Below, one piece after another: positions 9,201 through 31,000 of a stretch of DNA of 58,457 bases. The first letter of the stretch is position 1. Every line of letters begins with the position of its first letter. Location of the stretch: the NCBI GenBank assembly GCA_000934665.2, contig JYFJ02000112.1, positions 124,001 through 182,457 of the forward strand, in the 5' to 3' direction. Origin of the DNA: Catajapyx aquilonaris. Taxonomy: Eukaryota. The notes under the pieces were generated by a model. It did no database searches. It was not told the DNA's origin and saw only the letters and a list, made by a program, of their open reading frames with translations. The position numbers were made by a program, and so were the translations under genes.

Positions 9201-11655
9201 TCAGTTTTGATACTAACAAGTGGGCTATACTATCATTTCCCTCCCCCAAAAAAACAAGGTAGGTGTGGTTGCATTACTGGTTGCAACATGCAATTTGATC
9301 AACAACAATGTAATAAATTGTGGCTTGCATGCTGATAAAACCAGGAATGATGACTGTTGGACAAAAAGTGTACAGTTACACGCTGTGCATGATGAACAGC
9401 CTTTAAAAAAAATCCTTCTCAGCAGCACTTTGATCATTGAACTCCCATAAAGCATAGTAAAATCCCTTTTATCCCCCTTGTCCCTGCTGTGTTTGAGAAG
9501 AAGTCTCTCAACCCTTCCCCCCGACATGTAGACGAAGAAGAGACCCTAGGGGCGTCCCAGGGGTCGCTTGGGAAAGTACACTTTGCACCCCCTCAGAAAA
9601 AGAAAACCGGTATGACGACTCCAGCTTCGTTTGTTTAGCAAACAGCCCCTCTTTTTATTTGCCTTTCGCCTTCTCCCGATTATGATAACCTCTTCAACGA
9701 GGTGCTAGGGACCGCCCAAATTACATGGTGAGATGAGGAGCACCCCTCCTTCCTTCCTCTCCTCCTTTCTATCAGAAATGTGAAATTGGACAGCCCATAC
9801 AAAAAAAAAAACAGACTTCAGCGTTGATTAACATGTTCTCCAGACGCCTGATACGGACACTGATTTATAATGTATTTTTATACGACCTTCGTGGAGATTT
9901 CCGATTCTGATTTGTTCTTTTTTTTTGTGTACAATGTGTATACGTCTTTTCTTTTCGCGAGTGAATTGCCCTGGCACTTTTTGATACTGGTTTTAAGGGT
10001 CGTGATGGTTTGCCTGTAGGGGTTTTGGATCAGCCAAAAGACCGATGCCCTCTTTATATTCGGATAAGGAAACAGGTAGCCGAAATTGTTACCCTTGGGC
10101 TTGCGTGGGACCCGGCCTTTGGTTTCGACCGAGATGACTGGAGGCTCCAGGATATCTTCGTTGAAAGACTGCAGTCGATCGAAGTTGTAATAATACTTCT
10201 TGTCGCCTGATTTCCAAGTGAAGTTCACGTACCCAACCTGTAAGAAATAATAACACTCCTCAATAATAATTTTTCCCCACACATTTCTTCAATAATTTAT
10301 TATAAGAGTCGGTGGTTGCTGGAGTGAACAATCCGTACCCCTTACCTCTGATGGAATGATGGGCAAATGCTTGTCGAAGTTCGGATCCAGCAAGTACGGC
10401 AGCACATGGCCGTCCACAATGGCGAATATTTCCATGGGAAATCCTGAAATATTGTTGCAAAAATAAGTGAGCTGCGGTTTCAGTCACTCTCTGCGCAAGC
10501 ACCAAAATTGGGCAAAGTCAATAAACACACCAGAAATAGACATCCTGCCACAACCAGACAGACATACTTCTTGAGGTTACCACATTGCAACAATACGCAC
10601 GTATAATGCCCCATCTCATTATAAGTCTGTTCGCGGCTGTCATAATCACAATTATCAGGTGAGCCAAGTTGACAGCTTGCAGAATGCGTCCGTCATAAAT
10701 AATTAATGTGACGAGGTATGAAGTTGGGCAAGACGACCTTTAGATCTTTCAAGCACAACTTTTTTTTTTCTTTCTTTCTTTTTAGCTCGTTGTTCACCCC
10801 CCTTCATCCTCCTCACTGCTGCGGTCAAAGCCTCATCAGCCTTGGCAATCAAGCAACCACAAATAAAACGTTTGCATTCGCGCCACGTCACGTCTGCGAG
10901 GATTGCATACGGCCAATTGCACACACACAAAAAAAGGGTCACTCTCGTAAAGTCCCGTAGGCTCCAATTACAATCCCCCGTCATTACTTGTTGCAACCAT
11001 GTACATAGGATGGCTGCAGATGTCTTGATTTACTGCTGCAGCCCCTCCCCTTCTGGCCACCATAACCCTTTCATTAAATGCAAGCACGTTCCACTTGCAG
11101 CCAACCCCTTCGCACACATTTGTCTAATTTTACAGCTTGGCAGCCGACCACAAAATTGTCGGTTTTTCCGGGCTGTAAAATCCACTGAGACATTGATGTC
11201 TTCATTTGTCGACGTCGTTTGTCGATGTGGAGGAATTCTGGAGGGCTGTCACGTGCGGTGTATATACAGTGCTGGAAATTAATGGATATCCACAAGTATC
11301 GCCGTCTGGCGGAGCTTTTCCTTTACAAGTTTACATGAAGCAGCTTCGTGTGAAGAAAAAGCTCCGCCAGGCGGCGATACTTGTGGATATATATTAATTT
11401 CCAGCACTTGTACGTGCTGCACTTACCACTGAACATCTTGACCTGTTGCTCGTCGATCCAGAGCGATAGGTCTTCGGGTCGGTGCTGACGTCGACCCCTG
11501 TCCCTGTCCCTGGGTCGATGACGGCGCTGCTGCTGTCCTTCTGGTTCCTTCCGTCTTCTGGCTGGATGGTTGTCGGCGGTGATGGCGCAAGGTGCGGACA
11601 GCAGTACCAGCAGCAGCGCCAGGGACAGCAGCAACGCCAGCTGCAGCTGCTCCAT
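6239..11655 (-). CDS. shf: Protein shifted / Wnt inhibitory factor 1 homolog (signal peptide, WIF domain, 5 EGF-like repeats), about 393 aa
   Basis: Coding exons 11655-11427, 10443-10346, 10237-10093, 8742-8599, 8496-8296, 6732-6637, 6565-6350, 6291-6239; all introns GT-AG and phase-consistent (1182 nt). Signal peptide MEQLQLALLLSLALLLVLLSAPC. WIF motifs LSLWIDEQQVKMFSG, LLDPNFDKHLPIIPSEVGYVNFTWKSG and FSVFLPCSGNVSG...GTPLRLRLRKEC. EGF repeats CDKKCANGGWC, CYPQCMNGG, CGEKCLNGG, CVIPCLNGG, CKKPCRHG. The last small exon is less certain. Confidence 0.95.
6760..7455 (+). CDS. COQ7: 5-demethoxyubiquinone hydroxylase COQ7/CLK-1 (mitochondrial di-iron protein), about 185 aa
   Basis: Exons 6760-6886, 6951-7100, 7175-7455; GT-AG and in phase (558 nt). 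Motifs IIRVDHAGEVGANRIYAGQ, HMWDQEKEH, VRPT, AMACTVAVESVITDHYNNQ, RDDEMEHHDTG, GCRGAIWISERI*. The basic N-terminus MMLQIQRRFLS resembles a short mitochondrial presequence. Confidence 0.96.
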
Positions 11656-14150
11656 GACCACTTAGCTCAGCTGCCTTCTACCTCCTCCTCCGCCTCTTCT
11701 TCTTCCTGCTCTGGTCACCGCATGGTCGACGCAGATACTCAACCTCCACCACCCTGGAAACAGAACGTCGCAACATAACACATGTCGGCAGCACCCACGC
11801 ACCCACACAACAGACATTGCCCATATCCCACCGGGTCAATTTACGTAACTCGTGGAGGTCGTGCCTCGGAGGTGTGTGTTTCATACTCTTCGTGATAAGA
11901 CAGCTCGTGACTCTAATCCCCGACTAAGACAATAACCCTCCGAAAAGTCCTGTCCAGACCCCCAACTGGTTTCTTCAGGATCACCGACCCGGACAAGTGT
12001 CCAGCGGATTACACGGATCAGAATCGCCCTACATCGCCCCCCCCCCTTTTTTTTTTGAATAGGACCTGTATTTTCTAAACCTCTTAGTACAGGTGCTGGG
12101 GCTCCTCAATCAAAAGACAGCTCCCCTCTTGTCCCAACCCGCTGAAAAGGGAAGAAAATCCCTCAGCACCCGGGGTGTAATTTGTAGCCTGTGTCCCAGC
12201 AGGACGTCCCAATGGTCAGCCCATGGATAATAAAAAAAAGAAAGAAAAAGGTCACTTCAACTCAGTTAACATTCAGTTGGTCACGGCTCGGACTCTGAAA
12301 CCACCAGTCTTTTGCTTCTGCTGTCTGCTTGGTTTGTCCCTCCTTCGGTTTCCCCCAAAACCAAGGACGCCTGACGTCAAAGAATAAGTGGGAAATTATA
12401 CGTTAGACCTCTCTGGGAAACAGGAGGGCAGCCCCGTTTCTCCACCTTCAAAAACCACCATATAATGAAGGTCCCTCAGTGGCAAGATGCAGACCACGTG
12501 TGGGAGAGAGAAGAAGAAAAAAAAGAGAAGCTAATAAAGAAATCTTCATTTACTTCCCTGCTGTCATGACCTAACCTTGCAGAAAAGTTTTACTTGGATT
12601 TACCTATACGAACCTGTACCTGGCGGCATACCAGAACTTTTAAAAATAGCGGCTACTTGATTAAGGTCGGGACCCGAGTGAAGTGGTCTGGTTTATTGCA
12701 TACCCGACCCTTTTCAAAGTGGTGACAAACCGTGACAGACTCGAGGGTTGGCTAGCGGCACGGGTCTTCTTTCCACACTTTTGAACTACAAAGATTGATA
12801 GATTGCTTCGACACGCCTCCTTCTTTTCAACCCCTGATTTTTTTTTTCAGGTGCGTAAATACAAGCACATACTTTGTAAAAAAAATGCCCTTCGTTACCA
12901 TGTCAAACTGACAAGTGGTGAAAGGCCTCACTATGCAAGGAGGGGAAAAAAACGTGGAAAAAAAAATATTGCTCCCGACCCTTCTCCCCAAATTGAGATG
13001 TTTCCCATCGGGCCAAAGCCTCCTCGGAAAAAAAAATATCTCCGCCCCTTAAGAGGCCGATGGAACGGATAGATTTGCACAAGACAGTCCTCCTGGGAAT
13101 AATTGGAAGAGGATTCTGGACTAAACCCCCCTGAAGCACCTGAGGGTGTACACGGGGGTATTAAGAAAAACCTTCCTTTAAAAGAAGATATAGAGTCGAG
13201 GGGGGGTGGGTGAGACCCTTACTCCACTTCGTTTCTCGTTTTTCAAGTTCGTGAAAGAGTTTTTTTTCTTTTCTTTACACACCCCACCTCCAGTCCCCAC
13301 CCCATGCCTGCCAAGTGGGAGATCAGGGGGGATGTTATAAACTTGCACCTATAACACCCGCTTAATTTGTTAACTCGATGCTGCACTTTGGGGTGTACCA
13401 GATGGAAATTCGGTTGCACTTAAATAGTTAATGTTTATAGAGCTTTTTCACGCACCTGCCACTCACTTGTCACTTGCTTATTAACTCGCATGTCAGTCTG
13501 GCTTTTGAGGGGAATAATCAAGTGCCTCGCGCGAGAATTTTTATCATTGCCCAACTTTGTTGATGACCGTGTTACACCTTGTCATGCACGTCACAACCGG
13601 GGGGCACGTGCACAGAAATCTCAAGAAGGCACACCAAAAGAAGAAGAATAGTTTGACTCACGGCGAAGAAGAGGTCAGAAGCTGCCGAAGAATGCAATCA
13701 TCCTCATTCCAGCAGCCGACCATCACTGCATATCCTCCTGCTGCTCACCAACCCAACCAACCCCTTTTTTTCTTGAACCCTCCACCAACCACCACCACTG
13801 GTGGACCTCCAGCTCCTGGGTCTCTTCCAGACCCACTGAAGCAAGAGACCTTCCTTTTGCCCAGCTGCACAGCACCCCCTGCACAGACTTGCGCCCTCTG
13901 CACCACACAAAACACGGCCTCGTTTTTTTCTTCTTCTTCTACCCACTTCTTCTTTCTCCTTTTTAAAACATGTGGTTGGTGTGCAGTTGTTGGAGAGACG
14001 CCTCTTTTACATTCGCAAAATCAGAAGACCACCAACGGCATGATTGCAACCAATATGCACAGGTCACACATAAGAAAACGTTTTCTTATGGATTCATTTA
14101 TTTCATGCAAGTGGGCTGAGTCAGCAATGTTATGAATTATTATTATTATC

Positions 14151-14380
14151 AATTATTAACAATTGTTATTGTCGACTATAAATTATTAACAATTGTTATT
14201 GTCGACTATAAATTATTAACAATTGTTATTGTCGACTATAAATTATTAACAATTGTTATTATCGATTATCAATTATTAACAATTGTTATTATCGATTATA
14301 TATTATCAACAATTGTTATGATCGATTATAAATTTTTAACAATTGTTATTATCAATAATTATGAATTATTAACAATTGTT
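14151..14380. repeat. 30-bp tandem repeat (minisatellite), about 7.5 copies
   Basis: Unit AATTATTAACAATTGTTATTGTCGACTATA starts at 14151, 14181, 14211, 14241, 14271, 14301 and 14331, with a partial copy at 14364. Confidence 0.95.
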
Positions 14381-15387
14381 TTAGCAGTACACAAATGCAG
14401 TACAGTATTCTTATTATCTCTCCTACTTGCAGAGGTTTCTGTTACTGGTTGTCTGAGGCAATAGTGGCTTAAAAAAACTGTTATTAAATATTCTTCCAAC
14501 GTGCTACTCCGATGTTGATATGTCAAATTTGATGTCACCATTGTTATTGTGGATTGCTGCTAAGTAAAATGCTATTTGGACATTAAATGGAGAATAATGC
14601 TGATTAAATATTGAAGGATGATTGCAGTCACATATTAGGCCAATAAGGCATGGATACAGGTCTACTCATTCCCCTATGAAAAAAAGGTAATGAGCACAAC
14701 ACTCCAATTAAGGTCCAGATGATGTCACATTAGCATTATTCCAAATTAACAATAGTGACTTCAATAAATAGTATGATGATTAAATATTGCAAAATGGAAT
14801 GTAATGTTTTTAGTCAATATTGTCACAACGACCAGTAAGCAAGCATATCGTATACCAGGAAGAAATAGCATGCTATTGTATATAATTTCTATCTACATAA
14901 TTAGAATTTTAATCATATTTATTTCTGCATTCAAATGGCGTGTTACAATGGGCAAAAAAGTTTGGCCGAATATTAATATGATCGAATCAACCAATTACCT
15001 GGATATTTTTCACTCAAACATAATACTTATTATTGCAAATGAGCACTTGTGGTTCAACTCTAAAAATGTACCGGTAATAGTCATGAGAAATATGTGAAAG
15101 GAAGTGCCAAAGAAGTTCCGAGGCTCTCCTGACAAACATGCAACAACTTGTGGGATGATAATGGTAACAGTGGTAACCTATCTCCTTTAGGTTTGCTTAC
15201 TTACCAATAGGAACCAATCTGCAAATATACTCGTATCACTCTTTATCTTCTCGCATACATTTATTACTTCACTTGGACACAAGCAATCTGCACTCATGTT
15301 AACAAATAGAGACCTTTAAAATGTCATCACAGCATGATTTTATTGCAACAAAATGGTAGTAACAAAATGATTCCAATTTGCATCGTC

Positions 15388-17505
15388 TCAATTGGCATCT
15401 GGCAGGTGCCATTGCCAGGGGACTTCACCAGAAGGAGACATAAAGTACTCCGAGAACCACTCTCTCACAGCGCGGGCATGGTGACTATAGTTGTTTGCAT
15501 TTGTTGGCAAAAGGCCTTGTAGTCCTGACGTTGCTCTCATCGCCTCCTGCTTGCGCCATGTCCCTTTATGCCTTTGTCCAGTTTCATCAATGTAGTCAGC
15601 ATACCCTGAAGGACAGTAGTAATTGGACCTCTCCTCGTGGTAAGTTTCTTCAACCATCAAGAAGTTGTGTAACACAACACATGCCTGTGTCACCAGGTTA
15701 ATGTGGTCCAGCCCCAGAGTGATTTCTGACTTGAAAATCCGCCATCTCTGTGACAATATGCCAAAGGCATTTTCGCTGCATCGCCTGTCAAGAACATACA
15801 TTTCACAATTAATACATACGTAACAAGCAATTAAAAGCAATAGCTGATTTTTGCCATGCACTGCAGCTCTTTAGATTAAATACATACCTTGCACGACTAA
15901 GGCGATAATTGAAGATTCTTTTATGGGAGGTTAGCTTCTCGCTTGAATATGGTCGCATGAAATCAGGCCGTAGCTGGATGGTAGTACCTCCTACCAAAAC
16001 ATAGGGTGCTACCCTGCTAGATCGAGGGAGATTGGCAGCCCTGGGCAGCGTAACCACTCCATCTTCCAGACTTCTCCCCAAGGAAGATTCTTTAAATATG
16101 ACTGCGCGAGAGAATAAGCCAAAATTCCTCACATCCATGCTGATGAATTTGAACTGTGCATCCACCGCAGCCATGAGAACAACTGAATCCGTTTTCTGTA
16201 ATGATTGAAATTGTGTACAAACTATTAATTGTCGGAGGGTTGATCATATTGTGTGTTGAACAAGTACTGTTTGTGGACAATGCTGTTTATTTCGATTCCA
16301 CTTTCTCATCGATATTGTATCATTTATGATTTTAATTCAGATTCTACTGACATCTTTCCTATTCTCAAACCTTCTGCAATAAATAAATACAAACACTAAT
16401 ACCACATGTAATTGACATCAGCTGACATCGGTACTGGTAAAGACTTTGCAGACTGTTCCCTTATCAACATGAAACTTAGAATCTGCATTGCAGCAAATAG
16501 CATAATTTCTCCCAGTGTTAGCTGACTATGTTACTTATATTCACCTTGGCGTTTTGTTCGGTCACTATCTGTTTGGCATCGACAGCACCACAGCAATGGG
16601 GAAAATCCCATTTCTCATCAAATTCTTCTGCGATTCTTGACCAGTCAACAACTGTGAGATCCTACAATAAAAAATAATTTTGCAATAGTTATGTTCATTT
16701 TTGTCAATTACGGTACTAAAATTTTTAATATCATACAGCCCTTTAAGCGAAAGAAGGATCTGATGTCACACCAGCCGTGTTATCCGAGCATGCGCAGTAT
16801 TATGCTTGCAGAGTGATTCAGGGACATGATGAGAGGAAAGAGCTGGGTGGAGGCAGGGCTGAACGTGACGTCAGATCATTCTTTGGTTTAGCGGACTTTA
16901 CCTGGAGGTACGTAGGTTGCAACATATCCCAAATCACGGTGCATATCTCCCGGACAACATTACGCACAGTTGAAATGCGAATGCTAAATTCCATCGCAAT
17001 AGTGAAGAAACTTGCGCCCGTGGCCAAATACCTGCGGAATTAAAGTAGTTATTCTCATGTATTGGAATCACTGAAGACTGTCACATCTACCTCAAAGTGA
17101 TGGCCAACTTGTGACTTGGCGAGAGCATCTCTCGTGACAGTGTGTCTTGTGTAAGTCTGTCACGAATGAGATACTCCAGATGCTCAAACGTCTGAGGCGA
17201 CATGCGCATGTACCTCTTGTAATATGCAGGGTGTCCCTTCTCCAGCATCTGAATCTGAAATAATATTGAAGGGTAGTACAGACAGATCAATGTTTGTACT
17301 TTGTGACACTTACTGGATTGTGGCAATGCCCAAGAAGTGTCGTGCGTTGCTGGCACATCTGCTGGACCAAGTGAGGCCGCGGCTTCTCCCTTCTCTGAAC
17401 CAGCCTTTTCTTCCGGATAATCAGCCATTTCTTCAGCAGCAAGACCTTTTTCCTCAATAAAAGCTGTCTTCTAAACCAGTACTGGTAATCACTAGAAGCT
17501 GCCAT
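15388..17505 (-). CDS. PIF/Harbinger transposase-derived protein (HARBI1/ALP1-like, DDE_Tnp_4 family), intact, probably nuclease-dead, about 435 aa
   Basis: Exons 17505-17314, 17254-17091, 17031-16902, 16661-16545, 16195-15888, 15784-15388; GT-AG, in phase, no internal stops (1308 nt). Family motifs [98 protein letters not shown] on the minus strand at 15339-15344. The start codon is inferred. Confidence 0.88.
16736..16898. mobile_element. TA-targeting MITE (Tc1/mariner/pogo-like ends) in intron 3 of the Harbinger-derived gene
   Basis: 34-bp inverted ends 16736-16769 (CAGCCCTTTAAGCGAAAGAAGGATCTGATGTCAC) and 16865-16898 (reverse complement AAGTCCGCTAAACCAAAGAATGATCTGACGTCAC), 26/34 identical. 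TA at 16734-16735 and 16899-16900. Confidence 0.7.
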
Positions 17506-17755
17506 CTTGCCTATTCCCGCTCTCAAATAGTTTGCAAGAATTCTGCTCAGTGGCAGCATGTGCTTCATTGAAAAGGTAAGTGCTGCCATCAACATGGGGC
17601 CAAGATATTACTCTAATTATTACATGCCCTTAAGTGTCAAAAAAAATTGATGGAAGGAAAAAAAATAACGAAAATAAGGATTCTCATTAAAATGGAACGA
17701 TTTATTTCCCACTTTTCTAATACTATATATTTTTTTTGTCATATTAGAAAGCCAG

Positions 17756-17884
17756 GGGGTGGATTCATCAACCGTCACAAGTCTTTCTGTCGTAACCAGT
17801 CATAACCATAGTTAATTATTAGTAACTATGGTTACTACCAGTTACGATCAAAATATGACTTACGACATTTGATGAATCCACCCC
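17756..17884. mobile_element. Foldback MITE of about 129 bp with GGGG termini (PIF/Harbinger-like ends)
   Basis: GGGGTGGATTCATCAA pairs with TTGATGAATCCACCCC as a perfect 16-bp TIR. Inner stem TAACCATAGTTA/TAACTATGGTTA. Flanks are CAG and GAG. Confidence 0.75.
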
Positions 17885-18356
17885 GAGATGCATAATTTTT
17901 TTTGGTGCATACTTCGCTCGTCAGTCACTCGCTCAAATAATTTAAAACATATCATCAATTAATACTGTACACTACAGCTTGTGACACACATACCATACTT
18001 AATTCCTTGCATAATCTTCCAAAAAAGGTGCTCTTATCGTGGCCTACTTATTTTTTTTCAGCATTTGTACATTTGAAGCGACTTAAGTCTCGAGGCCTTC
18101 CTGACTTTGCATAGACAATGCCCTCCGCTCAAACATATTCTCACATAATTAATGAGTTTTTTTTTCCTTTCTTTTTTTTTTGCAAAATAAATACAATGCC
18201 TACACATGGAAGCTCATCCCCCCCTTCCCCTTGACAAAAATATATAAACCCGGCCCTTTATTTTTCCTGGACGTAAAACATAAATACTCTGATAAATAAA
18301 AAGCACCGTAACGAACATGTGATAATAATTTATGCCAATATTATCTAAGCGTGTCA

Positions 18357-21300
18357 TCAATGTCTTCCGAGACTGAGTTGCGGGCTGTTTCCAAACTGCT
18401 GTTGCCTGTCAGACAAGTCATGGAGCACAGTGGATTCATTGGTTGGATCAACCACACTTGTAATTTGGGCTTTGCAGAAAAAGCAATCGGTGTGGTTCAT
18501 TAGATGGTGGGCAATGCAGCTGCGGCAGGAGTGATGCTTGCAGGGCCTGAATTCTGCGGATATGGGATAGGCGTAGCAAATGGTGCACAGGTCATCTTCC
18601 GAGAGGGACAGACGCATGTGGGACATCACTTTCTGGTACTTCTCCAGGTGGGCAATAGTTGATTCTAGGAGGGACAGTTCTTCTTCAGACACATCAGACA
18701 GATCTAGAGAGGGGCAAAAATTCTGTAAAATTCCACACAGTGTACAAGTTTGCTGAATAAGGGCCAGTTGCACCAACCTCAGTATATCTTAGAACCTCGG
18801 GTATATCAAGAATTGCCATAGCAATCATTGTTGGTCAACAATGATATACTGAGGTCGGTGCAACTGGCCCTAAAAGACTGAAGGAAATCTCACAGCAGCG
18901 CAAAGAGAAGGCTTTTCCCTTGCTCCCAGCAGGTGCTGCGGATGCGCACATTGCTTCATCTCCCAACAGAAAATGCAGGGAAGCTAACTGGAAGCTTGGT
19001 TCACTCAGCAGTGCCTTGGTGGCCACAGGAACACCTCCATCGTCCTGGATCTGCACTTCACCCCCTATGTCACGGCACACTTCTGGCTCAATCAGTGCTG
19101 TTAAGATCCCTGCTGCTGCTGTCAGAACAGGGTAATGGCCGACAGTCTCTAAGCCAGGAATATCCAAGCCAATGACATGGTCGAAGCATCCAGACCTAGC
19201 AGGAGCAAAAGTCACAGTTGAATTAAATTCATGGGATCTCTCAGAAGCGCTGAGCACTACAATTTAGTATAACTATTCATGTAGCATTTGCATTTACACA
19301 CTAACCTGGAGCTAACCCGATTGAGCACCTGGCAGAGTAGCTGACAAAGACGGGACAGAAGCGGGTCTGATGTTGGTCTCCCTGGATCAATGAAGATGTC
19401 CAGAGCAACTTTCACAACCATCTCAAGAACCCTGAGCAGAGCCAAAGCCAGATCAAAGCAAGTGGCACAGATTTTCAACTGGCGGGACTCGATGAATATG
19501 CGCTCAGGGCGATTTGATGCATTCTGAATCTCCTGAAGCATCCCGATAAATTCAGAGAAAGCCCAATTGAGCTGATTCAGGAGGGAGTTCAAGAAGGCAG
19601 GGGCAAGGCGTTCATCCTCCAGGAGGAGACGCCCAACCAGGGCCTGGAACTCTGGGGACGGACATGGTTCTGAAAGTGCAGATTCAATTAGAAACAAAGA
19701 CCATACCTGTTAAAAAATAGGGAATATGACCGCACACTTACTGAGTGTTTGTGTGAAAGCAGCCGAGTCTCCTTGCATTTGCGCTTTCCCACCTGGCCCA
19801 TTCCCACTGCCAGACCCATTCCCACCTCCAGCAAGGTGAGGTGACTTTGTGTACCTGAAGCCATATCCGTTCCCCTGCCACATTCGCACTAAGATCCAGT
19901 TGCTCTGTGCCCAGGGCCTATTCTCGTAAGGTCTGAGCAGTGCCCTTGTCATGGCCTCCTTTCCATCTGGCTTCATCCTCTCCAGTGCTCTCAGGGTGGG
20001 CTCATGGCAGGCAAAGCTGGACAGGGCCTGGATCAAACTGTCTTTAGATTCAGCATGTACAACTCGGGGGTCTGCAAAGTGGGTGGATAAAAAGGAGGCC
20101 ACTCTCGTTAGGAGACTCTCGTGGTCTGGCACACGGGTCATAGGAGTCACTGGGTTGAAGTAAGTTCGGAGGGCATTGCACGACTCGATGGCAGCCTCCA
20201 GGTAAAAGCCTGGGACAAAACTGAAGAGGACACCTTCTTGTGATGCGGTTGTCAAGGTTGCAAGGACGCTTCTGAGCAGCCACGCCACCTTGAAATTCCA
20301 TTGCAAATTTCATAATGTTATGGTAAATCTACAAGGTGAAGTTTACAGATCAAAATGGCTCACAGTACACACCTGCTTCTGTTTCTCAGCAGAGTAGACC
20401 ACAGCAATGACCCAGGCCATATGCCTCGATTGTTCCGCCAGTTTCTCTCCAAACACAGCCCTGGAACGCACAAGCTGCTTCCGCACTTCCTGTTCCTCCT
20501 CTTCGCTCCCCTGCTTTGATCTTTCACCTGCACTCTCCAGCATGGCAGCCATTTTTCTCTCAGTCTCATCCAGTGCTTCCACATACTCCGCCATGTTCTC
20601 TCGTAGGGTGCTCACCTTTGCCAGCTGCTTATGGGCAGCAGCATGGTAAAGCATCACTATACCATCAAGAAGCTCTGTCAGAGATCGCTCAGAATCCATC
20701 TGCTGACATTCCTTGTCTGGAGCTGACGTTGCCAGTGATACCTCGCTCAGAACCTTTACGGAAGAAGTTGCCACATTAATACGTAAATCTTTGTGCCTGT
20801 GACAAACATCAGACTTTACATGTCCAAGTATCAGCAATTCCCAACAAAAAGCGAATGAAAGTGTGTGAAGTGTACCGCAGAAGCTGCTGAGTTCCTTCCT
20901 GCAACTCCTGCCTCCACCACATCTAGCAGCTGTTGCACATCAGCCATGACAGATATGACAAGAGAGCTTCCAGATCCTCCCACTCCACTTATGGCGTTGG
21001 AGACGGACATGAAGCTGGTACTGGAGGGTGGCTCGGGCGCCTCCTCTTCCTGCGGTGGGAGCTGTCCCCCTAAAGCTGTGGTTACCTCCTCCCTCAGTGC
21101 CTTCCTAAGGTGAGAGAGAACCCCACCTAGACGATCCACACCATGGTAGTTGATGGTCCCATCATAGAATGAGCGACAAGGGATATGAACTCTCTCAGGA
21201 TGGCCCACTTCCTCTGCCCACAGGGACCAAAAAGCAGCCAACAACCGATGGAAGCAGCACAAAGTTACTGGGAGTGGGGTCTGAAGCACAGAAGCACTCT

Positions 21301-23819
21301 AAAAAGAAACAGAACAGAGCCATTAAAATTGTACCAGAAACTCGCAGCTTGCAGATAATTGTTCCAATGAGTTGTAATGTGGGTGAACAATAATTATTGC
21401 TCTCTGGGTGGAAATAACCTTGGAAAAGTTATTTCTATTTTCGTTAGGAATGTCACATCTTAGCTACATTTCGAAGTCTCTGTGACCCTGAGATTACTCA
21501 CTCGAGTACTGCCACCAAGGAAGAGTCGGAACTTGCGAAGAAAGATGGACCTTGATGAGGGGTCCTTGTCATTACCGTCAGTGTTGACCAACAGTATGCG
21601 GAGCAGACGGACTTGCATAGACTCTATCTCTGCAAGATTATGGAAAAATGCATTTTGCGCACATACGGGACATGCATCTGGGTAGTGAGCAGTTTTGTAC
21701 AACATTTGGATTAAAACAAGTGCTAACAAAAACTGCAGACTTACCATCAACAGCGTCCTTAATTCTTCTGCAAGCATCATGGTATGCTTCCTCATCTCCT
21801 TTCGGTATGTGAAACCTGTGGCACTCCCACCACACCTTGGGAATAGCCTCACAGAGGCCTCTCTCATCCAGGGGCTTGACATGTACAAAACTGGGGAATC
21901 TGATCTTGTCAAAGAGGACATTCCTTAGCAAGTGCTTCCTGGTCTGAGTGTGCTCCAGGAGGGCAAGCAGACATGACAGACTCTGCTTCTGGTGAGGGAA
22001 GTCCAGGGAGGACGGTGCATGGCGATAGGAAGTCAACAAGCATATCACCACCCCTTCCAGGCAGCGCTTCAGCTCGAACTCCTGGCAAAGTTCATTAAAC
22101 GACGAAGAAGGTGGAATAGCCATGAACGTCATTCAGAAGGGGTTTATATAAACGGAATCAATTTATATAAAACGATGAAATGTCACCTCACCTCCAGGAA
22201 GGTCCAGAGCATGTCAAGGAGTGCCATGAGCCCCGGGTGTGGTCCAACTAGTATGTTATGCCTGGCACACGATTGTTGTAGAAGGGGCACCAGGCATGCT
22301 TCTGTGATGTATGGGGAAGAAAGTAGGGGAGCCAGGTGGTGGAAGATCTGCGCAGAGATGGCCAGGAAGATGGCTCGGGAGGACGGAGGGGGAGACATGT
22401 CCGTGGAGGAGGTGGGAGGAGTCACAACAGTCAGTGGCGTCAGCGGGTGCCTCAGGGCAGCGCAGTACAGGGGCAAGTACCTCTCCAGCCAGCGGCAAAG
22501 GAGTGAAGCCCTGCACAAGTCTAACTCAGGAGGGTCTTGGAGAGGCCTGAACCCACGGACGGGGTACTTGAACGGGGTGGAACCAAAGTTGGCCACTAGG
22601 TTCTCCGTATATGCCAAGCTCACCGCTGGGAAGTAAGCCAGGCCTGGACCAGTGCGAATGTGATCAAATGCAACACCCATGGAGCGGCCATTCCTTTGAA
22701 ATAAATGTGGAGATTATTAGTATTTGCACCAGTAATAATTTAACGAAGCTCTTTACTTTTCTGTCTTGCTATTGCAACAATATTCACATGCTGACTATTT
22801 TAATAATAATCTATGTGAGCAACTTATTCTGATATTTGGATTATAAATGTATTGTTATGTGACTTACCTAAAGAATTCAACCTCGCCCCGATCAAGATCA
22901 ACAGTGCAACTGATGATGTCCCCGCTGAGCCATGCCTCTCCATACTTGTATGTTGACATGTTCCACTTACGAAGTCGATTTCCATCATACGCATACGAAT
23001 CAGCTGTGTCGCCTGCAAAAAAGTCACGTTGAATACTTATTTTCATTACTTGACAACTTCAGTCTCCACCAGCAAAATTCCTTTAAAATACGCAAATGCA
23101 TAAAAATTATACAAAATTCAGAATTCTAACAAAATATATGAACACCTGGTCCAATGTAGAAATTACCTTGGTTCAATTTTGATAATTTTTAGAATTCAGC
23201 ATTTTCAGATTGACTTCTAAATCGGATGTGATAAAATTATCACGTGATAAGTGATCAATATAACATAACGATTTAAGCTACAGTACGACCAGACTTACCG
23301 ACCCCCTTTTCCTGTGAGAACTTGCAGTCAATGGTAGCCCACCCAATCTGCATGACTCCCTTGGAGCCCAGCTGCAACTCATACTGCCATTTCCCCTGGC
23401 ACACGCACACGTTGGCCCGCATGGAACTGAAATTGCTCTGCGAGTTCAGGCTGAGCCGGTCGTTCCCAATAATGAACGTCCCCACATGCGATCCCACATC
23501 AAACCTGACCCTCGCTGGACCAATCCTTCCCGGTGGGGGTGTCGCCTGGATGGAACCTGGGCATGATCTGTCCAGCGCAGCCGATATGCTTGCCTTCAAC
23601 TTCTCCAGACTAGACACAGTTCTGAAATGCAACGGTACGGCTTAGTGTGTTCTGCCCAAAAGGACACTGCATATGTTCCGCTTCCTTATTATCCGGAGTA
23701 TATGTTTCTTACATTGCGTGGTTCCCTGATCCGACTGTCTTGTCCTGCAGGAGCAGTCCAGCCTCAGGGAAGACAAACTGGCGGCCAAACACATGCGATA
23801 TGATCCGATCCACCTCCAT
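18357..23819 (-). CDS. RNF123: E3 ubiquitin-protein ligase RNF123 (KPC1): N-terminal SPRY domain, C-terminal RING, about 1301 aa
   Basis: Exons 23819-23713, 23621-23299, 23012-22868, 22693-22192, 22081-21745, 21629-21502, 21298-20876, 20753-20373, 20288-19742, 19669-19306, 19195-18894, 18703-18357; in phase (3906 nt). SPRY motifs [33 protein letters not shown] and [15 protein letters not shown]. Conserved [17 protein letters not shown] and [61 protein letters not shown]. The acceptor at 20753 and the start codon are less certain. Confidence 0.95.
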
Positions 23820-24045
23820 TCCCAAAGCACCAAATGTTCCTTTTTTTTTTTCCTCCTCCCCAATCCTCTTCTTCTTCTTCTTGTTCCAGTAACCGTCTGC
23901 TATCAGCCCCAATGCAGTGCGGCCCTCTGGCGGAACAAGGAAGTGTCAATTATTATCATAATTATTGGCTAAATTGCACACATTAAATTTAGATAAAAAT
24001 TAATTTCGCATACCTTAAATCTGTAAAATATTTACAGAGCCAACT

Positions 24046-24366
24046 GCAGTGTTGCCAGATTCACATTCATCTGCAAGGTCTTTTCCTGGTTGGATTTTTT
24101 TTTTCTTCAGTTCGGATATGTGGTGTCGCGAATTAATTGTGGATGCAAGTGTTCCATTTTGTGCTGAAATTATTTCATGCAAGTAATTGCAATGCTATTT
24201 GCACGCAGAATCGATCAGCTCTTAATTTCAGTATTGTTTGTTTATAAACATATACTAGTTGTAAACAAGCTGTATTTTTTAAATAAATGTGTAATTAACG
24301 GCTACAAGTGTTAAATAAACGTATTTAGAAACTAAGCAGTGTTGCCAGAGTACCCGCCGCCATTTT
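24046..24366 (-). promoter_or_regulatory. Putative RNF123 promoter region
   Basis: GCAGTGTTGCCAGA occurs at 24046-24059 and 24336-24349. A YY1/Pho-like GCCGCCATTTT lies at 24356-24366. A candidate 5' UTR donor (AAG|GTATGC, minus strand) is near 24012. Confidence 0.4.
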
Positions 24367-27300
24367 TGTTCCATCCTCCAACAGGGTACGCTGCATCGAC
24401 ATATCCCATTGGAGCCCACAATCCATCCGATTTTAAATAAATACAGGCTAAAACAAATCCCGGCTTTAATTACAACCCGTGTCCAGCCTCATTAACATGT
24501 TATGTGCTTAACGTTCACTAGTTGGTAGGCACATGTAGTCCACCCTGATTCCCCCCTCCCCCCCTCCCTCCATTCCCTCCACAGCCTCTGCCACCCTCCC
24601 TACCCCACACCTTTTCCGCGGTTGGGTGTGGACGGGTCGCGGATCCGTTTTTGGGCCCCCGAAGCTTCTCCGGTGTTGTGATGTGGAAGCAGCTCAGGAA
24701 GGGAATAGAACGACGGGAAGGTGAGTTAGACAGTGTCTGGTTTTTGGAGGGGTGCACAACAGAACAGGGTGGGTTGATATCGCTAGANCACCCTCCCTAC
24801 CCCACACCTTTTCCGCGGTTGGGTGTGGACGGGTCGCGGATCCGTTTTTGGGCCCCCGAAGCTTCTCCGGTGTTGTGATGTGGAAGCAGCTCAGGAAGGG
24901 AATAGAACGACGGGAAGGTGAGTTAGACAGTGTCTGGTTTTTTGGGGGGCACAACAGAACAGGATGGGTTGATATCGCTAAAGGAAAAGGGGGGGAGCGT
25001 CCGTCGGGCAGGTAAGCGTAAGGTGGGGTTCTGATATAGAACAAAAAGAACAAAAATGGAAGAGAGGAAGGTGGGAAGCCATGCCACTTGTTACCTCGAT
25101 GTTGACAGGAGGATAGGTTGGCATGGAAAAGGACTGTTGGCATGTCACTACTGAGTAGCAACATGTTGACATGTCACTGGCAACATGTTGGAATGTATCA
25201 GAGATAGGTTAGGTTATAGCAGGTTTATGGACACAAAAAACCATACCACAACCAACTGAACATGTAAGCCGGTGCCTGCTGGGGTGTCACTCGGGCCAAC
25301 CTATACAATCAGAGAGTAACAATCAGGACGATAAGTAGTCTAGCAGTGGGTTAGATAGCTTATACATACAAACATATGGACAAACCTTCAGATTTATATG
25401 TAGAGTGTTGAGGGCAAAAATGTAAGGCTTGTTGCAATAGGATGAGTTAGCATGACATCATAGTACGGATGACATTTTGCCCCCATTCGCATGTTGACCG
25501 TATGGGTCATCGGTGTTGTAAGCAAGTCTGATGTTTGTTGATTCAGGTCAGCTATGAATGTCTATGAATTTTAAACGTGTACATTTTATATTAAAAATGA
25601 ACACTAATCTGGTCATAAGGAGTCAATGGCCTGGAGGTCATTTGCAGGTTATCAACTGTTTGGCTCCGAGGTCATCCTATCAGTGTCTGCTTTCATGTGG
25701 GACAGTTACTGAAATTCCAGTCGGTTTTACCTGCCAAAAGTGGCTTTATTTTCTCATAATGTAGGGTCTGTGTCGACATGACCAGTAGTTACATGGTAAT
25801 TAGGCAGCCAGGAGACCTGACTGATGGGCATTGTTGATGCCATGTTTGTAAAATGTCTGTTATGAAAAGAGGGGGGGAGTTTTTGCACTAATCACATGAG
25901 AGTGGGGATAGAGCAAGACAGCGGCTTATAAACGGTCTGGGAAATAGATCAATAGAGTTGGTGAGGCATTGACAGCTCTGGAAACAACCGCCTTCCACTT
26001 TGCAGGCTGCTCCATTTAGATGAGTTGCTTTGAGGGCCATCAATGTTTCAAATGGATTTCCCTTGTTTCCACCATGGGTTGGGTGGAAAGGGGGCATTTG
26101 CAGCATGCATTTCAAACATGGGTAAATCCAGCTGGCAAGTGCGCCACCGGTTCCCACTTGTGTGCAGGCAGGCCGAATCTTGTCAAGGAAAGGGCTCAGT
26201 GTGGGTCGCATTTTGTGGAGTTGCCACAAGTGCATAACCTCGCCCACGCCAAGCTCCGGAACTTCGGTCAAGAAGCTCAGAAATTTCTGGCGAGTGAGTC
26301 ATAGAGAGCACGGACTCGAGTGTGGAAAGATCGGGTTGCACAATCCAGTGGACCATCGGAGAGTGCTGTTGTATGATGAGGCTCTGAAGGACTGGCAGCG
26401 TGCCAGTCTGCCAGATGGTGTCACCTCACAGTAGCTGGAAAACCATGGTTATAACCTGACTCGACGTGTCATCTAATTGCATCTAATGAATCACCTGGCT
26501 CCACATGAAATATTAAATTAATAAACAAACAGTTTATTTGACCATCACTAATTCTGAAAAATGCCAAAACTGTACGATTATTTGTCTGTGTTTGTTTATT
26601 ATTTGGCTTCTTATGCTGCAATATTTCATGGAGTCTGTTGGAGTCCTTTAGGCAAGCCCTTTAGGAGTGGCTGTCAATTAAGCGTGCAATATATAAACCT
26701 CCCTTAATTTTCTCCCCTTTTCTCATACTGGTGATGTGGGACGCTTGCGGGTAACCATCCAGCTGCCAACCACCCCTTTTGCAAGGGGAGGGCTTGAAAA
26801 TCAGATGTGTTTGAAATGAGAAGAACAAACTTTTGAATGGCCCCCACACTTTAGCAATATTTGAACAACAGCACAATAATAATCTGTGCCTCACAACAAA
26901 CGGAAAGTAATGAACTCTGGGGAACGTCACTCTCTTATAAAAGGTTATTTGGCCCTAGGGAATAAAGCAGGTAACTGATAATTTTCAGCAGATCGATTGC
27001 AGGGGGGGCCCTCTGCACAAAATTGGATTCATCTCTCGGGTCCTCCCCATCCACAACTTTTCAGCACGTTTATCACTGTGACACGTGCACATGCAGGACA
27101 TAGATGGGATAAATTTTCCACACCCCCTTGCAATTTACACCCTGCTGATAATTAATTGTATTATCCTGTTTATTAGAGTGTTTGTGCCGTTTGTATCTGG
27201 ATGACATGTGGAGACATATTGCTGCAAAAATTATCACACCTTTTTGAAATCCCCCTTCTAAATAGGTTTTCGGATATTCTGGACCCGCATTTGCAAGGAA

Positions 27301-27877
27301 ATAGGCTGTTTCTGGAGCTAGGGAAGATGGCGCATAGTTGATTGCCATCCTCGTCACGTGTCTTCTTCGTCGACGTGCAGAAGTAGGGAAGGAACGCGAC
27401 TCATCTCTCTTCTCTCTCCCCCCCGCCATTTCTACGGGCCTCCTTATTTTCCCCAGTTTCTTTTGAAATCTAGAGGAAATTGTGGGAAAGGCCCTAATTT
27501 GGAATTCCAGCAAGTTTCGATGCAGCAGTTGGGGGATGTGGAGCCAATTGCAGCATGGATGCCCATCCGATTTTCAATAATAATAAAGCACGCGACCAGA
27601 ATTTACTGGGGGAGAGAAGGAGATGTAATGGCCAAAATTGTTAATGAGTTTAGGAATTCCTGGCGCCTGCTTGTTAATGACTCCTCCATCCATGGGGGGG
27701 AAGCCTATATGTCAAAAACATCCTGATTATGATGGGTCATAATTGTATTACGGGGCTAGTGGCAGAGGATATATGACAATTGTCAACAGTTTACTATAGT
27801 GAACCCGTTGCAAAAAATAGGCAAAACCGATAATAATCAATATGACAGTGACAATTAAACAACTTTAATGAGATCAT

Positions 27878-28004
27878 GTAGTACTATTCTTCACTCATAG
27901 ATCGTGCATTCTCCCTCTGCACACACCTGTCACTCTCAGGTCGTGCGAGAGATGGCAACACTATCAGGTCAGACAAACATCCGACGGAGAGAATAAGCCT
28001 ATTA
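27878..28004 (+). repeat. Dispersed MITE-like repeat of about 127 bp, copy A
   Basis: Aligns end to end with the reverse complement of 38936-39065, e.g. CCCTCTGCACAC.CCTG.CAC.CTCAGGTCGT.CGAGAGAT and ACTATCAGGTC.GACAAACATC.GACGGAGAGAATA. Confidence 0.8.
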
Positions 28005-31000
28005 CGTGACGAATTTAGCTGCGGCGCCAGGCGTTTTAATTAGAGTACCATGGGGGATGACCTGCTGGCTCCATATTATTATGACCACGCATGTTTTTGG
28101 GTTATCAGCTAACTAATCTTCCCTGGCATGCACTGCTGGACCACAGAGGGTTTAAGAATTGGGGTCACAGCCAGTCCCCTTATACATTGAGGTCGATTCG
28201 AATTGACAGGATGGGCTCAGTTAGGACACTGCTTTTTTGGGGCTGACATCAGTGGAAAATTTGGGTGTGGTGTATGAATCCGGAGGACTGCGGGGGTGGG
28301 TTCCAATGACGTCATCTCATGGTGGGTTTTTTTCGGGAGAGGGGGGGGCGCCACTGTGTCTGGGTTTCTGAGGGGTGCCTGCCTATTGCAGTTCTTGTCC
28401 AGCTGGCGACTTGGAAAGGGGGGACTTGCTTGTCTCTCTGGAGGTTTTGGGGGGTGTTGGGTTTCGTGGGGGGGACATCTATTTTTTTTTTGGTCAGTGG
28501 ATCGATCAATGTGAAAATGGTGGAACAGGGGCCAAGGGTCGGTAGTGTTTGTGTCCGGGAGTGAGTGTACAGACACACACACAAGTGTGGGAGCAGCTTG
28601 TGCCAAGGTGAGATGTGTCCCGATTTTTTGGGGCGCGAAAAAGCGGGATGGAAATCGATAGTACCGCATTTTATAGTCTTATGAATGGATATACACCCTT
28701 CAGGAGGGGTCTACAAATTGATCAATATTCTGCATGCGGCCTAATTTAACAATAATTTAAAAAAGAACAATCTATGAGTACACCTATACGACACTTGATT
28801 TTCACAAGGGTTCATTGGCATGGAAGAAAAATGAAAGGGGAAAAAATTGGCTGGCCTCTAACACCATTGGGTGCCCCCCATAATTTTAACCAAGCAGCAC
28901 GGAACAGATGCTGCCAACGTCTTTTTAGGCGGACATATATTAATAAAATAGCAGGTGCTGGTTGTCACTGTGCGACCCCCTGGTGATTTATGCCCAAAAA
29001 CATGTCATAGATTTTTTGCCTAATTGATGACCTCTCCTCCCATACTCCCCTCCCCCGAACATTTTAGAACCGACAGTTATTGCCAATACCTTTTTAGGTG
29101 ATGATGTATACCGTAGGGCGCAGCACCTTAAAAGCGGTGTGCCCGCAGATTAATTTACACCATTAAAATTAAAACGGGGAGAGTCAGACGCGTTGCTGAT
29201 TAATATCAAACGAAGGACCGGTTGCAGCCAATACCAGCGGAATTAATTTGGGGGCTTCAGGCAATTAGCCTGCCATTGACTATCCAATTGTAGTTGATCA
29301 GAGGCCACTTGGGGCCAATGGAGCGACAGTTTTTTTCCTTGGGTGTGTACGTGTAATGAAAAGGAAGGCCATAAGATGCGATGTCAGGCACATGGGATGT
29401 GCGTATGTGTAAGCAATGAAGGGGGGTTGCTTGTCAATTGTGCAAGCAAAAAGACCGTTGATGCCAGATTGGTCGTGTGGATTTTTGCTGTATCTAAATG
29501 GGGGCTTAACGTGTGAAGAACCCATTTTCAAGGTAGACCGGGGTTGGATGGATTTTTCCGGTGTCGTGAGCATAAATTTTTTGAGATCCGGGACTGTGAA
29601 ACGAGTTATCGTTAAAGTTTCATGGGGAGAACAGGATTATACGATTCAATTGGAGTTTGAGGGGTCTGGGGATAACTGAATTATGCTGGTAATGAGAGCT
29701 GATTTTTTAATAAAATGCAGCTAAACCTACTTCATATCTGGGTGCAGGATCGGCTGGGAGAAGAGGAGAGATACTGTAATTTCAGGAGTTTTGCTCTGTA
29801 ATGTGTCCACGGGGATAACTTTTTCAAAATTTCAGCCCTGCGGGTTAGTTAGCAGGCGTTATTATAGTTTGCCCGAAATGACACTACCGTAATTATGATA
29901 ACGGTTGTGACCTTTTGCCCCAGTTATGTTCGCAAATGAAGTATAATACCACAAACTCATTTCAAATCTTTTGATGCAATTTAATAACCAGCCCCGTGCG
30001 TTTATGTTATTACATCCCTACCACTTCGCTGTCCGCGGTATGCAGATTTATATGTACACAATGTGCATTTGGATGGCTCCCAAAGGTTAACTCAATGAAG
30101 CTCCAAGTATTCATATAATCAATGCGGCTATCCGTTTATTAAATGCATTCCCTTCCTGACAGAGCAGGAGAGCAGGGAAGTAAATACTCTTATTCGCTTA
30201 TACCCTTGTCTAGTGAAGGTCGATATTTTTCTTCGATTGTTCATGACTAACTTATGAATTGCGCTGCCATTGGTAGGCAGTGTAGTTACCCTTCGGATAA
30301 GCAAAAAAGTCTTGTGTATGGGGAGCAAGCTAGAAATAACACTGCAGCATCTGTCCATTAGCATTAGTTTTGCTGTGATTGGACGGTTTTATAGATGGCG
30401 TCTACGACACAAAATTGGTCAGAGATGACGCCATGTGTTATCAACTGGCACTGATCCTGGAATAGCTGATTTTTTAAATTGACAATTGTTTCCATGTAAG
30501 GCATGCGCGAAATATTTACGACTAATAGAGCACATAATTGAATATTTTTCTCCTTAATTTGTATTCATACAACTGGCCATATGTTCGTAACGTCCCACCA
30601 TAATTTGCGGTTGCTACTCCTATTCATCACTGACCAAGTCACTGCCTATCTCGTAATTTATAAGGAAAAACCGCGATATCTATATGCATGATCTAGGGAA
30701 TAAAAATAGCTGCTGCCAAAGTCAAGTCCCCAGAATAGAGAGTGCGTGTGAGCAAAAGGGGAAACCAAGTGCCCTCCAGACAACGACGACAACAATTCAT
30801 GGTCACAACACCGTGCTTCCGGTAAATATTGTCCTCCCTTCCTCCCTCCCCTGCAGGTTTTCACGCAGGAGGAAGCCAAGGGAAAAAGACAGACCCCCTC
30901 GGAATGACTTCCCCTTGGAAACATCATCATCGTGCCAGGGTGTACTGACCTAATGGGTGCCATTAGGCAGTGCTTACCTGAGCAGGGTTGGTTGGGGGAG

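Follow-up and report, generated by a model that had tools for sequence, protein, structure and literature searches.

Transposases of the PIF/Harbinger superfamily have been domesticated in vertebrates (HARBI1), insects (DPLG, APLG, LPLG and BPLG) and plants (ALP1 and HDP1). Here, we analyzed a stretch of 58,457 nucleotides from Catajapyx aquilonaris (GenBank assembly GCA_000934665.2, contig JYFJ02000112.1, positions 124,001 to 182,457 of the forward strand), hereafter the window, in which a Harbinger-like gene lies on the minus strand between positions 15388 and 17505. Its protein, named WIN, has lost the second Asp of the catalytic DDE triad and has kept every family-conserved residue of its C-terminal third. 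We hold with moderate confidence that the WIN gene is a domesticated, non-catalytic Harbinger-derived gene, and as such it is one more case of a well-described process, transposase domestication. HARBI1 differs from WIN in keeping its catalytic residues.

ALP1 reads DGA in place of DDE and, like WIN, originated from a Harbinger nuclease/transposase, carries Gly for the second catalytic Asp, has kept the rest of the protein and is no longer part of an element (PMC4671723). In contrast to WIN, ALP1 is a plant gene of independent origin and has lost the Glu too, whereas WIN keeps it (D-G-E). ALP1 binds the Myb-derived ALP2, which links it to polycomb repressive complex 2 (PRC2), and has orthologs across land plants (PMC7282668); this proven partner, the PRC2 association and the orthologs set it apart from WIN. 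HARBI1 resembles WIN as a vertebrate host gene derived from a Harbinger transposase, and it has the Myb-derived partner NAIF1 (PMC4671723). For PIF-derived genes in general, PMC9710019 lists as criteria of domestication synteny in distant species, a ratio of nonsynonymous to synonymous substitution rates (dN/dS) <1, and the loss of terminal inverted repeats (TIRs), target site duplications (TSDs) and related copies. The insect genes described there, DPLG1-7, APLG1/2, LPLG1/2 and BPLG1/2, are single-copy, PIF/Harbinger-derived animal genes with no TIRs, TSDs or related copies, like the WIN gene as far as copies at ≥80% likeness are concerned, and some of them, as WIN, have no adjacent MADF gene. 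They differ in that microsynteny across species and dN/dS values of 0.04-0.33 stand behind them, and BPLG1 and BPLG2 have two exons whereas WIN has six. In the titles and abstracts listed by literature searches, neither a Harbinger-derived neighbour of RNF123 nor the domestication of Harbinger elements in arachnids was a subject.

The structure of the WIN gene was compared with contigs of four of five public sequencing runs, aligned to the window at ≥80% likeness. X1, X3 and X4 are DNA runs of one sample, possibly the source of the window, and X5 is from another sample (S2) of another study. The features of the gene are as follows.

17505..17314, minus strand: exon 1, residues 1-64, with the ATG at 17505; an X5 contig joins 17314 to 17254.
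17254..17091, minus strand: exon 2, residues 65-119, first half of the helical/helix-turn-helix (HTH) region, ending in KLAITLR; an X5 contig lies over 17141-17254.
17031..16902, minus strand: exon 3, residues 119-162, second half of the HTH region (YLATG...STV); an X5 contig over 16901-17033 joins 16660/16661.
16661..16545, minus strand: exon 4, residues 163-201, with GAVDAKQ and D190 (codon 16580-16578) and a 9-residue loop deletion between residues 198 and 199.
16195..15888, minus strand: exon 5, residues 202-304, with SRAV (R231), GGTTI (G271, codon GGT at 15988-15986) and a retained NYRLSRA.
15784..15388, minus strand: exon 6, residues 304-435 and TGA (15390-15388), with SENAFG, E308 (15774-15772) and VPWQW; X5 joins 15784 to 15888.
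15344-15339, minus strand: AATAAA polyadenylation-type signal 3' of the stop codon, at a distance of 46 nt from its first base.

The joined exons comprise 1308 nt (435 codons and TGA), and introns 1-5 measure 59, 59, 240, 349 and 103 nt, all five with GT..AG ends. The original prediction, made from the letters of the window, had described an uninterrupted six-exon open reading frame (ORF) of about 435 residues with a nearby AATAAA, and its coordinates, length and neighbours (RNF123 and shifted) were all correct. Pfam and the large searches were run exon by exon rather than on spliced WIN. At E 1.1e-5, the exon-5 frame matched DDE_Tnp_4 (PF13359) with 25.5 bits, above the cut-off of 24.8; the match of the exon-6 frame had 22.4 bits (E 9.9e-5). 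Judged by these matches, the gene is a member of the PIF/Harbinger transposase superfamily. HTH_Tnp_4 was not detected on the WIN exon frames, where the motif is divided by intron 2; in P0183, one of the closest relatives, it scored 18.8 bits only, under the cut-off.

To describe the catalytic site, exon 5 alone was compared by HMMER with 1.84 billion cluster representatives, which gave 2448 proteins at E≤0.001, none of them at E≤1e-30. The best were 52-54% identical, and the best 150 of the 2448 were aligned. At the second catalytic position, these 150 relatives have D in 141 cases, G in 5, E in 2 and N in 1, with 1 unaligned. WIN has G271 there: its GGTTI stands where 61 of the 150 read GDEAF, and the four residues after G271 are changed as well. 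SRAV of WIN replaces SDGG, the reading in 79 of the 150. In a 58-row alignment, GAVDAKQ retained the first Asp (D190) and SENAFG retained the Glu (E308), and nine residues of the P..SGS..Y(F) loop of the relatives were absent from WIN; the gap falls within exon 4 by alignment, the last exon-4 residues NAK aligning with NYK of the relatives. The catalytic pattern of WIN is thus D190-G271-E308 rather than a complete DDE triad. That these three positions form the DDE triad is established for the family and agrees with their ≥80% conservation in the alignment. G271 is not an assembly error, because X5 is identical to the window over 15887-16183, including the G271 codon. A micro-exon for the missing loop was sought in intron 4 by tblastn with relatives and none was found, the sole match (17 aa, E=3) being rejected. 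The degenerate motifs named in the original prediction (GAVDAKQ, SRAV, GGTTI and a loop shorter by about 9 residues) were each present, the D and the Glu of ENAFG that it had described as kept were recovered, and alignment did not restore an intact triad.

We next compared this erosion with the rest of the protein at 87 columns that agree at ≥80% in 53 reference relatives, leaving WIN's own five-row clade out of the reference. WIN was changed at 6 of 25 columns in the N-terminal/HTH part (reference mean 2.2, maximum 9), at 12 of 29 in the core from the first to the second catalytic position (mean 1.9, maximum 11), and at none of 33 in the C-terminal part, a block that opens with NYRLSRA in the last stretch of exon 5, continues over exon 6 and includes VPWQW (mean 2.1, maximum 9). 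Fisher's exact test gave p=2.4e-5 for the core versus the C-terminus and p=0.0015 for the core versus the rest. The loss is therefore selective, as the original prediction had proposed for the catalytic residues, because uniform decay would not yield 12 of 29 against 0 of 33. At least four separate hits fell on the active-site region: G191A with H193Q, the loss of 27 nt in frame, SRAV in place of SDGG, and GGTTI in place of GDEAF. If the core columns drifted freely to about one third changed, a rough conversion gives a neutral divergence (K) near 0.19. In 20000 simulations limited to substitutions, with indels and the ten splice sites left aside, an open frame survived in a fraction of 0.0046 at K=0.1 and of 0.0002 at K=0.19. 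Four active-site hits imply much time, yet 435 codons and ten splice sites are intact, which argues that the rest of WIN has been under selection since catalysis was lost. This is our main argument, and it is drawn from a single sequence; the contrast of 0/33 with 12/29 columns is a proxy that points to constraint and is not a dN/dS test.

The contigs of X5 suggested that the gene is spliced. They skip 15785-15887, 16662-16901 and 17255-17313, which have GT..AG ends and correspond to introns 5, 3 and 1, and each joint is anchored on its shorter side by 255, 22 and 114 letters, respectively. The DNA runs X1, X3 and X4 gave no joined contigs, and their contigs read through the introns. The simplest reading is that the intron-less contigs of X5 represent spliced RNA. 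No listed X5 contig lies across intron 2 (17032-17090) or intron 4 (16196-16544), the bins at 16242-16509 being uncovered; because of this lack of a bridging contig, the two junctions were placed from the sequence itself. Of the splice junctions that the original prediction had proposed to check, those of introns 1, 3 and 5 were thus seen and those of introns 2 and 4 were left unbridged. An intact and expressed coding region, one of the criteria for PIF domestication in PMC9710019, is represented here by the 435-aa frame and the contigs of X5, a run whose kind is not on record.

The hallmarks of a mobile element were sought around the gene. None of 33 inverted pairs in 14000-19000 encloses it credibly, the only enclosing ones being 20-nt AT-rich matches to a tandem array, and none of 68 flanking ORFs (10400-15380 and 17600-28700) belongs to the Myb, MADF, SANT or THAP families (22 were scanned at E≤0.01 and 46 at E≤0.1; fast-evolving MADF genes can escape Pfam). 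Both absences had been noticed in the original prediction. A 205-aa frame at 13518-14135 was discarded as a partner, being of low complexity and matching no family. When 37 relatives were compared with the whole window by tblastn, no match fell outside 15400-17100, and hence no other piece resembling Harbinger was seen. Single-ORF Harbinger-like 'Spy' elements occur in invertebrates (PMC4122938), and therefore the absent Myb gene may be a trait of the lineage and not an outcome of domestication. In each DNA run, one contig lies on the exons, with flat depths of 35.1, 40.6 and 22.4 and a small excess at 15706-15839, whereas two short repeats (16734-16900 and about 17756-17884) collect 44-73 contigs per run. 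The allelic contigs at 15094-15302 in X1 have depths of 15.0 and 19.7, which sum to 34.7, near the 35.1 of the exon contig; contig depth is not copy number, and contigs, not the whole genome, were compared. A second contig at ≥80% likeness is absent, and nothing suggests collapsed copies. Within the limits of this comparison, the gene has lost TIRs, TSDs and related copies at ≥80% likeness, the losses listed in PMC9710019; the proposed check of copy number covered copies above the threshold, older ones not being visible to it.

Three proteins were the best full-length matches to WIN, all of them whole ORFs on contigs of 2-12 kb.

P0183: 434 aa, 42% identical to WIN; second catalytic D kept, SDGG read as SNGE, loop rewritten; 9 of 29 core columns changed.
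P0063: 483 aa, 41% identical; second catalytic position G, loop shortened; 10 of 29 core columns changed.
P0169: 416 aa, 36% identical; second catalytic position N, loop gone; 13 of 29 core columns changed.

They share with WIN a basic, leucine-rich N-terminus of the LLL-RKK-LLL type, encoded by exon 1. With exon 6 as query, word-based searches reached 48% identity at most, and 83 pattern matches of exon 6 in metagenome contigs included none that was confirmed. A profile search with P0063, P0169 and five WIN exon frames collected 254 proteins at E≤1e-10 among 8000 scored. In a tree of 27 rows built without insect PIF-derived genes, WIN, P0183, P0063, P0169 and an intact 'ALP1-like' protein of the scorpion Centruroides sculpturatus formed one clade (95/88*), and a neighbouring clade (100/99*) held nine rows, eight of them named tick proteins. 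The named members in and beside WIN's clade are thus from the scorpion and ticks, and 'ALP1-like' on animal relatives is an automatic database label. The rows automatically named 'nuclease HARBI1' (P0212 and P0257) lie outside WIN's 14-row clade, in a tree with no true HARBI1 sequence. The four eroded rows (WIN, P0183, P0063 and P0169) stand on one side of a branch whose support (76/85) is not decisive, and monophyly of WIN, P0063 and P0169 without P0183 was neither rejected nor shown by the approximately unbiased (AU) test (p=0.085). Hence, the eroded relatives could reflect either one old domestication with lineage-specific erosion or several parallel ones.

We tentatively propose the former, although we consider it rather doubtful: WIN, P0063, P0169 and P0183 might descend from a single domestication and represent an old and so far undescribed family of host genes of Harbinger origin in non-insect invertebrates. 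The active site would then have eroded in a different way in each lineage (second catalytic position G in two, N in one, unchanged in one; loop lost, shorter or rewritten), and the C-terminal module including VPWQW would have been held constant for a non-catalytic function. If true, this history would parallel that of ALP1 in angiosperms. WIN has clearly given up catalysis with its C-terminal third untouched, and its full-length relatives stand at different stages of the same erosion. Together they indicate which part of the fold would serve the non-catalytic function and offer a natural series for studying it.

Intact PIF/Harbinger-like transposases of ticks and a scorpion (P0186, P0185, P0187, P0188, P0192 and P0039; 40-43% identical to WIN over about 340-380 residues) resemble WIN in the arrangement of HTH and DDE_Tnp_4, in the C-terminal motifs and in one or more intron positions. 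They differ in keeping GA[VI]DGKH, the SGS..Y.NYK loop, SDGG and GDEAF, and several of them stand for clusters of many sequences. The shared intron position bears on the intron-rich structure, which the original prediction had named in the heading of its candidate domesticated gene. P0001, with 48% identity on exon 6, keeps GDEAF and SDGG and carries, read through between RLSRAR and RCSENAFG, a 29-residue insert at the exact site of intron 5. Among the 150 exon-5 relatives, 18 ORFs end ≤12 residues after the end of exon 5 and 27 start ≤12 residues before its start, and the scorpion protein has an insert directly after NYK, the site of intron 4. As intron 5 is common to relatives with a catalytic site, a part of the exon structure, if not the whole, is older than the loss of catalysis. 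Intron-richness was therefore rejected as evidence for domestication, at least intron 5 having been inherited from the transposon lineage. The insert of P0001 begins R-Y-N-L-K-S, and intron 5 of WIN read through gives R-Y-V-F-N-L-K-S; judged from these letters, the start of intron 5 may be conserved between relatives that are about 45% identical as proteins.

The fold was modelled on P0063 as a stand-in for WIN with a 62-row alignment. The model (mean predicted local distance difference test score (pLDDT) 87.4, predicted template modelling score (pTM) 0.80) comprised an HTH region and a transposase/integrase-like core, with the shortened loop between the first two core strands at model residues 241-251. 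Foldseek gave no match to the PDB at E≤0.001, and solved structures contained no relative by sequence (best E 0.18, an unrelated chain). VIA-align placed residues ~209-410 nearest to piggyBac (Z 9.3, root-mean-square deviation 4.9, 236 aligned), Tn5 (Z 8.1) and Tn4430 TnpA (Z 8.1); 27 chains scored Z≥5, the top ones being DDE transposases and integrases. Residues 127-203 matched small HTH DNA-binding domains weakly (Z 4.1-4.7). Since P0063, with the second Asp changed to Gly and a shortened loop as in the core of WIN, still folds confidently, we counted the model in favour of domestication.

Here, we propose a model in which a PIF/Harbinger transposase gene would have been fixed in one copy at this site, which lies about 0.85 kb downstream of RNF123 and has the same orientation. 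Erosion of the active site would have followed release from selection for transposition, and WIN, presumably unable to cut DNA any longer, would have been retained as an expressed protein-coding gene, i.e., as a domesticated (exapted) transposase. What is retained comprises family-conserved residues, all of them in the C-terminal third and the majority in the HTH region; what is lost comprises the second metal-binding Asp, the loop and the Asp of SDGG. The HTH and RNase-H-like fold may thus have been kept as a scaffold, and WIN would act without catalysis, most likely as a DNA- or chromatin-associated adaptor. It might bind a Myb/MADF-type partner encoded elsewhere, as in the pairs ALP1-ALP2 and HARBI1-NAIF1, from which this adaptor function is drawn purely by analogy.

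It is possible, though rather unlikely in our judgment, that WIN is instead a solitary, immobilized Harbinger-like copy that is decaying while still transcribed from its own or a neighbour's promoter, its frame being open through recent inactivation. The intergenic gap behind RNF123 is a typical landing place, and ticks have many apparent elements of the family, with as many as 26 sequences in a cluster. Such a copy would also suit four observations. The end branch of WIN is long (1.03 versus a median of 0.72), and its Pfam score is low. No ortholog was found among the proteins searched, where the best identity was 48-54% on single exons and 42% over the full length. The intron structure comes at least partly from the element lineage and is no mark of domestication. 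Against domestication, besides the long branch and the missing ortholog, stand the following points. WIN keeps 70 of the 87 conserved columns (a median share of 0.91 is kept by the relatives), which fits relaxed constraint too, as does the branch, and the N-terminal W-rich motif of the relatives is eroded in WIN. X5, with its unrecorded kind, would yield the same contigs from a processed retrocopy; elements that are alive or died recently likewise have transposase genes that undergo transcription and splicing. The lone coding single-nucleotide polymorphism (SNP), the synonymous change at 16638 in exon 4, carries no statistical weight, and the contig comparison is blind to copies below 80% identity and to a partner gene elsewhere. 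However, a decaying copy should not change as unevenly as WIN did between core and C-terminus, and the time implied by four active-site hits is hard to reconcile with an intact frame and intact splice sites when so few simulated frames stayed open at K=0.19. The gene is moreover without TIRs and without a copy at ≥80% likeness. The lineage-specific domestication suggested in the original prediction was supported by the open frame, the intron-less contigs of X5, the absence of TIRs and of a second contig at ≥80% likeness, and the selective loss; intron-richness gave it no support.

Two further explanations concern the transcript and the enzyme. The exons might be part of the transcription unit of RNF123, reached by read-through or used as alternative 3' exons, rather than an independent gene, and the frame would then not be translated on its own. 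The RNF123-like gene lies on the same strand (RING finger 18357-18788, TPR_RNF123 18835-19709), its RING-finger frame ends at 18357, and an X5 contig of its 3' region runs from beyond 18500 to 17810, past an AATAAA at 18262; the next AATAAA on its strand, at 17706, precedes the ATG at 17505 by about 200 nt. One gene thus follows closely on the other, and transcripts may read through. No contig, however, links an RNF123 exon to exon 1, and the X5 contig of exon 1 starts at 17510, just before the ATG. Moreover, the frame of WIN has its own ATG, stop and AATAAA, and its N-terminus matches those of P0183, P0063 and P0169, so that we regard this explanation as improbable. It is more improbable still that WIN is an active nuclease or transposase in which another acidic residue replaces the lost Asp. 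WIN retains D190, E308 and intact ENAFG and NYRLSRARR motifs, yet its Gly stands where nearly all aligned relatives have Asp, the next four residues are changed, the adjoining loop and the Asp of SDGG are lost, and there are neither TIRs as substrate nor copies at ≥80% likeness. Domestication without catalysis therefore remains the reading we prefer.

On the far side of the WIN gene, a WIF-domain exon lies at 9878-10288. Two miniature inverted-repeat transposable elements (MITEs) were identified in and beside the gene.

16734-16900: high-copy MITE of ~167 bp in intron 3, with TIRs of ~36 nt that begin TA-CAG / TA-AAG; 44-73 contigs per DNA run at ≥80% likeness.
17756-17884: palindromic MITE between the end of RNF123 and the ATG at 17505, with 28-nt TIRs, 86% complementary (GGGGTGGATTCATCAA...); ~39-65 contigs per DNA run.

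Loose contig ends at 16731-16734 and 16897-16900 mark the MITE of intron 3. One end of it abuts the 5' splice site, the G of GT being 16901, and the letters fit an insertion into TA at intron positions +2/+3, in which the duplicated TA would have rebuilt the donor (GTATGA to GTAAAG). The intron enlarged in this way is still removed, because an X5 contig joins 16902 to 16661. The palindromic MITE has an inner 25-nt inverted repeat at 17790-17847, and the X5 contig of the RNF123 3' region breaks at the edge of this MITE (17810).

The low polymorphism of the gene (3 listed differences in ~2.5 kb) was set aside as evidence, since it is not specific to coding sequence. Just 3' of the gene, at 14845-15302, the haplotypes are strongly diverged: the allelic contigs at 15094-15302 (209 nt) differ by 7 substitutions and 13 gap letters, 132 nt (14900-15031) are skipped by one contig per DNA run, and one run has a 20-nt deletion at 14845. 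A tandem array with a 30-nt AT-rich unit (8.1 copies, 89% matches) occupies 14137-14380. Between the RING-finger and TPR_RNF123 frames, a near-perfect 29-nt inverted repeat at 18760-18871 (arms 97% complementary and 54 nt apart) probably represents a small MITE or a hairpin within an intron.

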